DNA from: a virus
Taxonomy: Duplodnaviria > Heunggongvirae > Uroviricota > Caudoviricetes
IMG/VR virus record: IMGVR_UViG_2698536657_000011
Direction: 5' to 3' (one strand)
Length of the DNA: 6,325 nt
Shown here in pieces: positions 1,179-6,032 of the stretch. Numbering within the stretch: the first letter of the stretch is position 1; each line of letters begins with the position of its first letter. A program made the translations under genes and the position numbers. The notes below the pieces were generated by a model that made no database searches, was not told the origin of the DNA, and saw nothing but the letters and a program-made list of their open reading frames with translations.

Positions 1179-1520
1179 TCAGCCAGCATTGCGGCCTGAT
1201 CGGGATGATTTTTGGGTAACGTCGATTGAAGCCAGATCGCCCTCCGACTGAGAAGATCCATCAAGAGAGAGAGCCGGGGCAATTTGCCCGGCGGCAGGTA
1301 GCGTCTTATCCTTTAACAGCCAAAACATATACTTTTCAAATCGATCTGCCTGAAGAACCGACTCCACGATTTTAGCTCTGGCGCTCTTTTGCCCTGATTC
1401 ATAATTCCTTACGGTGGCCAGAGATAACCCTGTAATTTCAGCAAATTGTTTTTGCGTTAAGCCCTCCGCCTTACGTATCTGGCGTAATTTTTCCGCGTAG
1501 TCTATTGACAAGATAACCAT
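1179..1520 (-). CDS. Immunity repressor, P2 C-like, with N-terminal XRE-type helix-turn-helix, 113 aa
   Basis: HTH signature (LTQKQFAEITGLSLATVRNYESGQ) near the N-terminus. Downstream segment FEKYMFWLL...AGQIAPAL resembles the P2 C repressor as I recall it. Co-oriented with and directly upstream of int, divergent from the rightward early genes. The only upstream Shine-Dalgarno candidate (GAGAGG) lies about 11 nt from the ATG, so the start is less certain than the ORF. Confidence 0.78.
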   Translation of the reverse strand: MVILSIDYAEKLRQIRKAEGLTQKQFAEITGLSLATVRNYESGQKSARAKIVESVLQADRFEKYMFWLLKDKTLPAAGQIAPALSLDGSSQSEGDLASIDVTQKSSRSGRNAG

Positions 1521-3957: not shown

Positions 3958-4200
3958 ATGAACAGCATATTTACCGCCACCATGCTGACGCGTTTCACCG
4001 ATGCCGTGGGCCACGAGTTCATGGTGGAAAGTCATTTGATCACAACGACCACGCCGTGCCCGTCAGACGCTGATTATCTCTACATCCATCTGGCTGACGG
4101 AACACAAATCACCGCGATTGCCAGTACCGTTCGCGAAGTAACGGCCATCAGAGGGGCATGGAAATCAGAAACACAAGCCCACGGAGAACTGCGGCCATGA
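3958..4200 (+). CDS. Hypothetical early-region protein, 80 aa
   Basis: Start set at the ATG at 3958, preceded by GAGGGG, rather than the GTG at 3943 in the track. Stop overlaps the next start (ATGA at 4197-4200). Confidence 0.55.
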   Translation: MNSIFTATMLTRFTDAVGHEFMVESHLITTTTPCPSDADYLYIHLADGTQITAIASTVREVTAIRGAWKSETQAHGELRP

Positions 4201-4701: not shown

Positions 4702-4997
4702 GCACCATCAACCACCAGAAGCTACGCGAACTGGCATTTGCCCTGCAACGAATGGCAACGCCTCAAAAATTACTGGCATTTCGCGCAATGCTCTCGCCGT
4801 CTGCTGTGCTGGCACTGCTGGATGAGCTGGAGCACGCCAGAACCACGGCTCCTGCCATTCGCCTGACGCTCCATCATGAAATCGCTGATTTCTGCGCGAC
4901 GTTGGAGTCGCCGGGCGAACCGGAAACGCCGGAAGCAATACAGCAAGAGCTGCTGCAACGCATTGACAAGGTTTTTGATTTTTTTCTGAACCAGTAA
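4698..4997 (+). CDS. Hypothetical protein, 99 aa; C-terminal about 40 aa paralogous to the 4197-4409 product
   Basis: GAAGGAAG Shine-Dalgarno upstream. C-terminal HEIADFCATLESPGEPETPEAIQQELLQRIDKVFDFFLN aligns with EEIDDFTATLSGPGAPVTPGEIHRDLKRRIENAIDYTLN. Confidence 0.6.
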   Translation: MSTINHQKLRELAFALQRMATPQKLLAFRAMLSPSAVLALLDELEHARTTAPAIRLTLHHEIADFCATLESPGEPETPEAIQQELLQRIDKVFDFFLNQ

Positions 4998-5114
4998 GAA
5001 ACCAGAACATGCACACACAAAAAAACCGCTTGCCATGCCGCAATCAGTCAGGTTACATTCCCGCTGCACCTCATAAAACGGGTGCCGGGATTTCCACCCC
5101 GCCGACTACAAGAG

Positions 5115-5145
5115 CGCACAACCGCGCCAGCGGTTTTTTTGTGCG
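5115..5145 (+). terminator. Putative Rho-independent terminator or attenuator: stem AACCGC/GCGGTT (5120-5125 / 5130-5135), loop GCCA, then a 7-T run (5134-5140); outer arms CGCACA/TGTGCG (5115-5120 / 5140-5145)
   Basis: Read directly. Lies about 120 nt downstream of the stop at 4997 and about 170 nt upstream of the next start. The GC stem is short, so strength is uncertain. Confidence 0.4.
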
Positions 5146-5261
5146 TACTGTATCGCCACGTCTTTTTCGCGTCAGAATAATGGCGGGGCGTACGGGGCCG
5201 ACTTCGGTCGGGCCGGGATCTCTTGTAGCCGGTTGTGGAAACCCTGTACGTCTCGCCACCC

Positions 5262-5292
5262 TGAGTTTTCCACCTCCGGATGGTGAGTTTTC
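5262..5292. repeat. Perfect 9-bp direct repeat TGAGTTTTC (5262-5270 and 5284-5292), spaced 22 bp, flanking a small palindrome CACC-TCCGGAT-GGTG
   Basis: Read directly. Two-helical-turn spacing immediately upstream of the gene at 5320 suggests a paired protein-binding site. Confidence 0.45.
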
Positions 5293-5319
5293 AGAACTTA
5301 CTACAAGAGGCCAAACACC

Positions 5320-5547
5320 ATGGCAAACCGCAAACAACAGCGCGCCCGCGCTGAGCGTCTTCACACCCGGACTGAAATCAACCGCAGACTCTGGCGCGCA
5401 TCACGCGTCGCGCAAATCATGTACGTCAACATGCTGCATGAACACGCACACGCGCTGTCAGACCGTTACTGTGCCGCCGTCTTCAGCTACCTGGCGGATG
5501 ACCTGGCAGAACTGCAGGACCTTATCAACCAGCAACACCACCACTAA
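5320..5547 (+). CDS. Hypothetical basic protein, 75 aa, with C-terminal QQHHH
   Basis: AGAGG 9 nt upstream of the ATG. Preferred over the overlapping 206-aa track ORF (5009-5629), whose translation is Ser/Thr/Arg/Pro/Cys-rich and looks like an off-frame read of GC-rich DNA. Confidence 0.5.
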   Translation: MANRKQQRARAERLHTRTEINRRLWRASRVAQIMYVNMLHEHAHALSDRYCAAVFSYLADDLAELQDLINQQHHH

Positions 5548-5615
5548 ACAACATCCTGAAGCTATCCCGCACCCGTGCGCGGGAGGCTTCCGCACGTCTG
5601 TTACCGGAGGTTCTC

Positions 5616-6032
5616 ATGAAGAGCGTTAAGGGACTTTCAGATATTCAGGATTTTTTTAACTGGATGTGGGCAGTGGATCCCCGGCTGGCTTCCCGCCTGA
5701 ACGACTGGCACGACTATTACCGCCGCGCCTGTAAACGGGCCGCCAGACGCGTCACCACATACGGGGATTTCTCCTTCACCGTTGACGACCGTTACCGCGT
5801 GGACGTGAAAGGTGATGGTGATGGTTTTGGTTTATTTCACATCAACGGAACCGACAGCACCGCCATCAGCTGGTCGTCGTCAGAGATGACGCTTGTTCTG
5901 GAAATGACAACGCACAGCGTGGCCGTGAAAGGCATATACACCGCAGAAGACTTTATCGGTGAATATCAGCGCCTTCTCGTGCTGTACCGCGCGGCGTTTC
6001 AGGCGGCGACTGCCGGGGAGTGCGACGCATGA
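5616..6032 (+). CDS. Hypothetical protein, 138 aa
   Basis: Strong GGAGG Shine-Dalgarno 5 nt upstream. Stop overlaps the next start (ATGA at 6029-6032). Contains a GDGDGFG segment; no family recognised. Confidence 0.6.
   Translation: MKSVKGLSDIQDFFNWMWAVDPRLASRLNDWHDYYRRACKRAARRVTTYGDFSFTVDDRYRVDVKGDGDGFGLFHINGTDSTAISWSSSEMTLVLEMTTHSVAVKGIYTAEDFIGEYQRLLVLYRAAFQAATAGECDA

Follow-up and report, generated by a model that had tools for sequence, protein, structure and literature searches.

A candidate RNA immunity module of the P4 and P1/P7 type in the early region of a P88-like Escherichia coli prophage

In satellite P4, the eta gene contains a constitutive promoter together with the CI and seqA sites, according to the part of PMC10111431 that summarises Forti et al. 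(1999). The same part of that article describes Eta as translated only from an upstream promoter, with coupling to the preceding gene, and its translation as preventing termination (PMC10111431). Systems of similar structure have been reported in P1, P7, N15 and some lambdoid prophages (PMC3632133, PMC4825925); IsrK is a seqA homolog and STnc1160 is CI-like (PMC4825925), and the general mechanism of c4 in P1 and P7 is summarised in PMC8198154. Here we analyse a comparable arrangement in a stretch of 6,325 nucleotides (nt), the IMG/VR virus record IMGVR_UViG_2698536657_000011 (the window), which is the early region of a P88-like E. coli prophage (Xuanwuvirus, Peduoviridae, P2-family). Between a gene ending at 4997 and a gene starting at 5320 the window has a gap with no annotated gene inside, and a conserved open frame, 5009-5629, spans all of it. 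The gap is read here as the RNA immunity module of the prophage, with the same design as the seqA-cI-seqC region of P4 and the c4 regions of P1 and P7, a reading to which we give a probability of about 0.85.

The gap holds full-length matches to two Rfam families, isrK and C4, both well above the gathering scores (Table 1), which were returned by the small-RNA family search that an earlier note on this DNA had proposed. Judged by sequence, IsrK and C4 are known phage regulatory RNA genes. The predicted fold of IsrK (-25.5 kcal/mol, z = -2.6) consists of two hairpins and a terminator, and the latter is the hairpin with a 7-T run that had been noticed before, its stem lying at 5120-5135 and the T7 at 5136-5142. 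When C4 is folded alone (5176-5263), the minimum-free-energy structure is the family structure (-47.4 kcal/mol, z = -4.5). A closing stem surrounds two hairpins, with one recognition element, a', in the second loop and another, b', in the 3' junction, both unpaired; complementary sites occur on both sides on one transcript, the downstream one at a ribosome-binding site. By analogy, the mature C4 probably extends from about 5181 to 5259. The GC hairpin with a UUCG loop, which the earlier note had put at about 5193-5206, does exist, at 5198-5211, and four homologs carry a compensatory variant of it (CCAGC/GCUGG). The isrK-C4 pair, with its order and spacing kept, was also found by Rfam scan in P88, in other homologs and in an Stx2a phage; this part is shared with Stx2a-converting lambdoid phages at ~74% identity. 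The Rfam c4-a1b1 model had no match in the window at E < 1.

The recognition elements of the two RNAs form two complementary triplets. The 9-mer CTACAAGAG is found at exactly the positions reported earlier, 5106-5114 (+), 5220-5228 (-) and 5301-5309 (+), with no further copy in the window at one mismatch or fewer; by itself the three-copy count is weakly unusual (8 of 200 shuffles reach 3). The inverted copy is a' and the direct copies are its targets a1 and a2, of which a2 overlaps, as had been noted, the AGAGG Shine-Dalgarno sequence 10 nt before the ATG at 5320. The earlier note had missed a second triplet, GUGGAAA at 5235-5241 (b') against UUUCCAC at 5091-5097 (b1) and 5267-5273 (b2). Arranged as b1...a1, a'...b', b2...a2, the elements are collinear for antiparallel pairing. 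The a/b naming used here is that of the P1/P7 c4 system.

The same anatomy is found in P4. The same Rfam pair is present there in the same order and spacing on the minus strand, isrK at 8692-8615 (60.8 bits) and C4 at 8507-8420 (74.9 bits). As in the window, the promoter start lies at isrK position 1, inside a long open reading frame (ORF; the promoter is P_LE, in eta), and the long ORF starts upstream, overlapping the stop of the preceding gene. In P4, b1 (GUGAGAA) occupies the loop of hairpin 2 and a1 UUCACAGG (= seqA) the linker, followed by the terminator; the CI RNA has a' in a loop and b' in the junction, and b2 and a2 (seqC) lie downstream. The P4 a2, UUCACAGGAGG, is fused to the AGGAGG Shine-Dalgarno sequence before the kil ATG, and the window a2 likewise lies on the Shine-Dalgarno sequence of the first translated gene. 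Both systems have an epsilon-family derepression gene downstream.

To assess the pairings, homologous loci were collected as relatives of the protein of 75 amino acids (aa) encoded at 5320, from IMG/VR, GTDB genomes and metagenomes, which gave 105 distinct 342-nt upstream regions. A single-protein scan of GTDB genome contigs yielded only 2 loci, and an alignment-based metagenome scan yielded only relatives of 63-89% identity and no deeply diverged lineages. Across the 105 regions, six short blocks co-vary as complements. Full pairing of a' with a1 is seen in 100 regions, compared with 8.7% when the partner is taken from another locus, and a' forms at least 8 of 9 pairs with a2 in 102 (full pairing with a partner from another locus, 6.5%). 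Similarly, b' pairs fully with b1 in 100 regions (22.6% with a partner from another locus) and with b2 in 104 (23.2%). At most of the variable positions, several double-compensatory pair types occur. The claim that the inverted 9-mer can pair with both direct copies, once on the ribosome-binding site of the 5320 gene, is thus borne out by covariation. Mean entropy is 0.88 in the six blocks versus 0.22 elsewhere, and the scaffold around them (promoter hexamers, IsrK hairpins, terminator and C4 stems) is nearly invariant. Sixteen a' types and seven b' types were counted in 34 combinations, so the a and b elements assort independently; CUUUGCUAG/CUGCGAA is one natural type that does not match the window. 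Hypervariable matched blocks on a fixed scaffold are, at the level of sequence, the signature of an RNA immunity-specificity code.

Between C4 and a2, a direct repeat TGAGTTTTC occurs at 5262-5270 and 5284-5292. Its second copy offers b' a weaker alternative partner, within a 23-nt inverted repeat (5220-5242 versus 5287-5309, 78% complementary); the covariation supports 5267-5273, and not this copy, as the true b2.

The covariation argues strongly against chance and against DNA iterons. The earlier note had left room for the repeats being DNA sites, either iterons or operators of a phage protein, with the RNA folds incidental. Three copies of the 9-mer, one of them inverted, do lie upstream of replication genes, and copies bound by one protein would be expected to co-vary too. 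However, the pairings contain 27 G.U wobble cells, which are A-C mismatches on the other strand, so that pairing is kept only in the plus-strand RNA while DNA repeat identity is broken, and the elements sit exactly at loop, junction and linker positions of two Rfam models. The DNA-site explanation therefore fits poorly. Further, an unrelated 7-mer triplet co-varies complementarily and assorts independently of the 9-mer, and in P4, where the layout is identical, experiments have established an RNA system. We regard DNA sites as barely conceivable.

Table 1. Positions in the window of the predicted RNA elements, the promoter, the recognition elements and the genes discussed.
Feature	Position	Strand	Basis or remark
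Internal sigma-70-type promoter	5030-5059	+	-35 TTGCCA 5030-5035, 18-nt spacer, -10 TACATT 5054-5059; consensus scan
IsrK / P4-seqA-type small RNA	5066-5140	+	Rfam RF01394 isrK, 63.9 bits (gathering 50), model 1-77 of 77
IsrK parts	hairpin 1 5066-5085; hairpin 2 5086-5101; single-stranded linker; intrinsic terminator	+	Rfam model, fold
b1 target UUUCCAC	5091-5097	+	loop of IsrK hairpin 2; complement of b'; duplex -8.6 kcal/mol
a1 target CUACAAGAG (copy 1 of the 9-mer)	5106-5114	+	IsrK linker, between hairpin 2 and terminator; = P4 seqA position; duplex -12.8 kcal/mol
IsrK intrinsic terminator	5120-5142	+	stem 5120-5135 then U7; nearly invariant in homologs
C4 / CI-type antisense RNA	5176-5263	+	Rfam RF01695 C4, 78.6 bits (gathering 45), model 1-87 of 87, E = 1e-14
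C4 parts	closing stem 5181-5197/5242-5258; UUCG hairpin 5198-5211; antisense hairpin 5212-5233	+	Rfam model, fold
a' CUCUUGUAG (inverted copy)	5220-5228	+	in 12-nt loop 5217-5228 of C4 antisense hairpin
b' GUGGAAA	5235-5241	+	unpaired junction of C4
b2 target UUUCCAC	5267-5273	+	downstream of C4; duplex -8.7 kcal/mol
a2 target CUACAAGAG plus G (copy 3)	5301-5310	+	overlaps Shine-Dalgarno AGAGG 5305-5309 of 5320 gene; = P4 seqC; duplex -13.6 kcal/mol
Eta-like (Ash-family) ORF, 206 aa	5009-5629	+	phrog_995, 821, 6928, 29966, 3960; same families as P4 Eta
Epsilon-like 'derepression protein' gene, 75 aa	5320-5547	+	Pfam PF25738 Derepression, 29.5 bits (cutoff 27); RefSeq name 'derepression protein'
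orf138	5616-6032	+	phrog_3237; no Pfam match
Replication endonuclease gene A, start	6029 to beyond 6325	+	annotation of 95%-identical E. coli prophage
C repressor	1179-1520	-	prophage gene

The promoter ahead of IsrK is conserved along with the RNA. Its -35 hexamer is identical in 103 of the 105 homologs and its -10 hexamer in 98, while the spacer has 21 variants. The start, predicted from the sequence only, lies near 5066, at position 1 of the isrK model and hence at the first hairpin, so that IsrK would have a promoter of its own. An A-tract at 5019-5025 precedes this promoter and may occupy the position of an UP element. The earlier note had suggested another promoter at 5153-5181, and the one at 5030-5059 appears better supported. 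The 5153-5181 candidate is conserved as well: in the homologs it reads TTGCCA in 52 regions and TCGCCA in 46, followed by a 17-nt spacer and by AATTAT in 102. However, the scaffold around it is conserved all along, and the first positions of the C4 model overlap its -10. It may or may not act as a promoter; in P1, a second c4 promoter has been reported (PMC8198154).

A 21-nt inverted repeat was also observed (5013-5033 and 5126-5146, 90% complementary, ACACACAAAAAAACCGCTTGC and GCCAGCGGTTTTTTTGTGCGT). In the predicted fold of a transcript started upstream (5005-5150; -51.6 kcal/mol, z = -4.4) these arms pair and replace the IsrK terminator hairpin. The core CACAAAAAAACCGCT is kept in most homologs, and the variant of the L007 type pairs less well. 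One possibility is that the repeat serves early-promoter transcripts specifically, as an antiterminator at the RNA level; another is that it simply stems from the UP-element-like A-tract with CCGC after it.

The long ORF at 5009-5629 also belongs to the module. The earlier note had treated the three ORFs across the gap as off-frame reads. The two minus-strand ORFs had no family support in Pfam or PHROG searches. The plus-strand frame, in contrast, matches the PHROG families of P4 Eta and, judged by its sequence, is not an off-frame artefact. Its ATG precedes the internal promoter, 21 nt ahead of the -35 hexamer, and follows the stop codon of the upstream gene by 11 nt; the frame reads through IsrK, C4 and the a2/b2 targets, continues through the whole epsilon-like gene in the +1 frame, and stops 12 nt into the next gene. 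Among 118 distinct regions, the frame is open in 117 from at least -311 (relative to the ATG of the 5320 gene) to past the epsilon-like stop, and in most variants its stop overlaps the next start codon as ATGA. Between -311 and -1 it averages 0.01 stops per sequence, whereas the other two frames have 2.9 and 1.7. Most distinct upstream junctions retain an ATG at -311/-314, at most 12 nt from the upstream stop codon; in the junction types that have no such ATG, the open frame mostly extends ~800 nt further upstream. Stops in the +1 frame are absent from 50 of 50 distinct epsilon-like genes (mean P = 0.245 by synonymous resampling; P = 0.083 by codon shuffling), and the leucine codon CTG is used in none of 74 contexts where it would create a +1 TGA. 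The link of this 206-aa ORF to P4 Eta consists only of shared profile families and layout. In P4, Eta is the ORF at 8168-8812 (214 aa; methionines at residues 16-18 give 197-199 aa).

Such a well-kept frame raises the possibility that the region is just protein-coding, specifying a 206-aa Ash-family 'transcriptional regulator', and that the RNA matches are by-products of conserved coding. The open frame in 117 of 118 variants would suit this explanation, as would the matches to PHROG 'transcriptional regulator' families, a weak match to Pfam Phage_ASH (16.9 bits against a threshold of 26, compared with 82 bits for P4 Eta) and the annotation of such proteins in some records. However, where the frame overlaps the epsilon-like gene, its variation peaks at the second codon position, which argues against protein-level constraint and indicates that only openness is kept, not the product. 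Upstream, variation is limited to the six blocks, whose covariation is that of RNA complements and not of codons, and the ORF contains an internal promoter and an intrinsic terminator. Moreover, the annotation of a P4 'cI protein' is historical; the immunity factor of P4 is RNA. We consider a purely protein-coding region highly improbable. Nor would translation of the 206-aa ORF speak against regulatory RNA, as the earlier note had held, since RNA and a translated ORF coexist in P4.

Doubtful proteins have been annotated over such RNA genes before. In P4 (L003, NC_001609) a 137-aa 'cI gene product, transcriptional repressor' is placed at 8168-8584 on the minus strand, and in P88 (L002) the minus-strand hypothetical protein gp13 (5033-5221) runs across isrK-C4. 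Translating the RNA region gives matches to the PHROG 'transcriptional regulator/repressor' families (995, 821, 6928) and to Pfam Phage_ASH.

Downstream of the RNAs, the 5320 gene is, by homology, the counterpart of the P4 epsilon anti-repressor and would be the first gene under C4 control, with the anti-repressor role being putative. P4 epsilon, which derepresses the helper, is the archetype of PF25738 (170 bits), and BLASTP aligns the 75-aa protein with it at 32% identity over 50 aa (E = 3e-7). The epsilon-like family has 17 invariant columns, including F55, S56, Y57 and L58, and an FSYL..D core, and substitutions in the gene are in excess at third codon positions. Expression of orf138 and gene A should depend on read-through. 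No similarity was found between orf138 and P4 orf151, and NCBIfam gave no match for the epsilon-like protein, orf138 or the long ORF.

The gene that follows a2 also marks a departure from P4. In P4 the first gene after seqC is kil, the in-frame 3' part of eta, whereas the window has the epsilon-like gene there, in another frame; the locus is therefore a variant of the P4 layout. With the epsilon-like gene at the kil position and in another frame, the long ORF covers that gene from end to end and terminates at the following one, whereas P4 Eta ends at the start of epsilon. Further, the host is not a satellite but a P2-family phage of the helper type (int, C, cox, gene A). A comparison with 80 P4-like satellite loci showed the same diversity of a and b types and the same design, with no a' type shared. 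In contrast to the satellites, the polarity of b is inverted: UUUCCAC is the b' type in 24 of the 80 satellite loci and the target (b1/b2) in the window. The b' of the window C4 is thus perfectly complementary, over 7 nt, to the b' of those satellite CI RNAs, and one may speculate that helper and satellite RNAs engage in cross-talk through these elements.

The immI regions of P1 and P7 (c4-icd-ant1/2) share with the window a C4-family RNA with a' and b', upstream a1 and b1, and downstream a2 and b2 on a ribosome-binding site, and the controlled function is an anti-repressor, putatively so in the window. Citron and Schuster reportedly found in 1990 that differences in the a and b sequences give P1 and P7 their heteroimmunity. 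In the window, unlike P1 and P7, the upstream targets are embedded in a full IsrK-type small RNA with its own terminator. The downstream proteins of the window match Derepression or nothing, with no match to ANT, KilA or Icd in Pfam, NCBIfam or PHROG.

A working scheme can be put forward for the module. The elements, their positions and pairing potential, the covariation, the conservation of the promoter and the open frame are observed, and the regulatory steps are drawn by analogy with P4, P1 and Gifsy-1. In a lysogen, the early promoter would be repressed by C and the internal promoter would make IsrK. Read-through transcripts would be processed (by RNase P in P1 and P4) to stable C4, which would pair with b2 and a2 and block translation of the epsilon-like gene; the untranslated RNA would be terminated, and the anti-repressor, orf138 and gene A would stay off. 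As in P4, pairing at b1 and a1 could reinforce termination; alternatively, it could allow IsrK to titrate C4, following the example of Gifsy-1. In lytic growth, early-promoter transcripts would carry the start of the Eta-like ORF, translationally coupled to the upstream gene, and ribosomes on the long ORF would melt IsrK, C4 and the targets, such that termination is suppressed and immunity no longer affects expression. The specificity of immunity would depend on the a and b sequence types.

The role of IsrK in this scheme is where Gifsy-1 of Salmonella offers a different logic. Its isrK-orf45-anrP region, like the window, has IsrK, a C4-like RNA and an anti-repressor in series, with long-range cis pairing of IsrK to downstream RNA; the IsrK terminator there is leaky and the C4-like RNA is processed. 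It differs in being lambdoid, in having as first ORF a 45-aa coupling ORF that overlaps the C4-like RNA, and in that IsrK is a trans-acting activator. Transferred to the window, a cis fold between IsrK (5087-5114) and C4 (5220-5245) would keep the read-through transcript translationally silent, and short IsrK from the same promoter would open that fold in trans and so activate the epsilon-like anti-repressor, leading to induction, with C4 mainly a structural or processing product rather than the repressor. The minimum-free-energy fold of the 5066-5340 read-through RNA (-109.9 kcal/mol, z = -4.4) forms exactly this long-range helix, the window IsrK is full length with its own terminator, and Gifsy-1 IsrK acts in this way on orf45-anrP, where the downstream gene is also an anti-repressor. 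On the other hand, the strictest covariation is that of C4 with its downstream targets (b':b2 and a':a2), which pairing between IsrK and C4 only would not need, and in its downstream gene, Eta-like ORF and target layout the window agrees with P4 and not with the orf45 arrangement. The Gifsy-1 logic is, in our estimate, rather unlikely as the account of this locus. The two models are not mutually exclusive.

The mutually exclusive pairings of the inverted 9-mer had suggested to the earlier note an attenuator or riboregulator. A structured regulatory RNA was correctly recognised; what does not stand is a new cis attenuator, as the elements belong to the known antisense module of IsrK/seqA and C4/CI. 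A pure cis leader, in which alternative intramolecular pairings decide between termination and exposure of the ribosome-binding site with no stable trans-acting RNA, would draw on the fact that these pairings exist and exclude each other, and on the P4 CI RNA also acting on its own transcript. However, the middle element lies in a full-length match to a family whose antisense RNAs are processed, stable and trans-acting, and the 17-bp closing stem and UUCG hairpin show far more conservation than a switch helix needs. In addition, an immunity specificity acting in trans would predict just such matched hypervariable a and b types, here in 34 combinations. A pure cis attenuator is therefore improbable.

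Several points weigh against the immunity-module reading or temper parts of it. Analogy is the source of what is said here on transcript ends, RNase P processing, Rho dependence and the direction of the IsrK effect. The predicted cis fold of IsrK with C4 suits the 'structure A' model of Gifsy-1 as well as it does the P4 model. Cofolding of C4 with its target and with IsrK gave no intermolecular pairs; this result is uninformative rather than negative, because the method cannot represent loop-loop (kissing) contacts. As regards the long ORF, the evidence for openness comes from only ~3-6 independent lineages, the product is not conserved, as the second-position peak within the epsilon-like overlap shows, and BLASTP of the 206-aa ORF against P4 Eta or 'cI' found no significant similarity. 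Finally, a few loci have mismatched a1/b1 or a' (L017, L079, L089, L090, L161).

Looking at these exceptions individually, L017, L089 and L090 have a1/b1 of another type, with a2/b2 still matching C4, and look like recombinants, while the a' of L079 and that of L161 fail to pair with either target at 2-3 positions. L155 also breaks the matching rule. Such loci could be immunity-defective or escape variants. In one genome (IMG 2703718815), two loci, L057 and L078, differ in both elements (CUUUGCUCU/UUGAGAA versus CUCUUGUAG/GUUCCAA). This is a single anecdote, and such a difference would be expected if co-resident prophages must be heteroimmune.

P4 already provides precedents for the RNA families, target layout, nested ORF and epsilon gene, and P1/P7 and Gifsy-1 provide further ones for the logic. 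Within the collection of papers searched, none describes the module in P2-family (P88-like) phages. The details of layout that differ from P4 are, as read from the sequence, the epsilon gene at the kil position, the full overprinting and the inverted b polarity. A wider picture may be sketched, tentatively and as a possibility short of likely: P88-type helpers would share an RNA-immunity-plus-epsilon cassette with P4 satellites, in which heteroimmunity is determined by a combinatorial a/b code (at least 16 a types and at least 7 b types, with 34 combinations observed) that also controls the anti-repressor and replication, as a second layer over C/Cox; the ORF would be selected only for openness, the act of translation itself antiterminating, and the inverted b would permit helper-satellite cross-talk. 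For P88-like prophages, the findings suggest a layer of RNA immunity over the epsilon-type anti-repressor and, by polarity, over gene A, and the module bears on prophage induction and on how these prophages interact with P2-like phages and P4-like satellites resident in the same host. No RNA feature is annotated over the region in the RefSeq and GenBank records inspected, which calls for correction. The natural matched a/b variants on an invariant scaffold form a catalogue of presumably orthogonal antisense/target pairs. The main practical value lies in this catalogue and in the correction of annotation; the field's picture of such modules is unchanged.

The surrounding genes follow the order integrase, C repressor, cox, small early genes, the gap, 'derepression protein', an unknown ORF and gene A. 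Of 5,426 complete E. coli genomes, 1,179 contain related sequence, and some have up to 4 copies. A tRNA and tmRNA scan of the window gave no match, and a candidate Rfam match to L31-Firmicutes at 1384-1423, below threshold (20.7 versus 33.3 bits), was taken as chance. A 226-kb contig labelled Vagococcus sp. (L005, NZ_JBQPOM010000071.1), a Gram-positive bacterium, carries the module, which is otherwise one of enterobacterial P2-like prophages, with a 74% identical protein and a scaffold near-identical to a Salmonella locus; the label is probably due to contamination or a mislabelled assembly. In the Stx2a-converting phage (L166), the isrK-C4 pair lies at 2000-2188 and a 283-aa ORF (2036-2887) reads through C4 into a longer protein; the same record has an ALIL pseudoknot match (120.9 bits, 4066-4182, minus strand), which probably derives from an insertion sequence. 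The plus-strand early operon of the window has a second gap of ~315 bp at 2551-2865, where the record of a closely related E. coli prophage has a small hypothetical gene on the minus strand.

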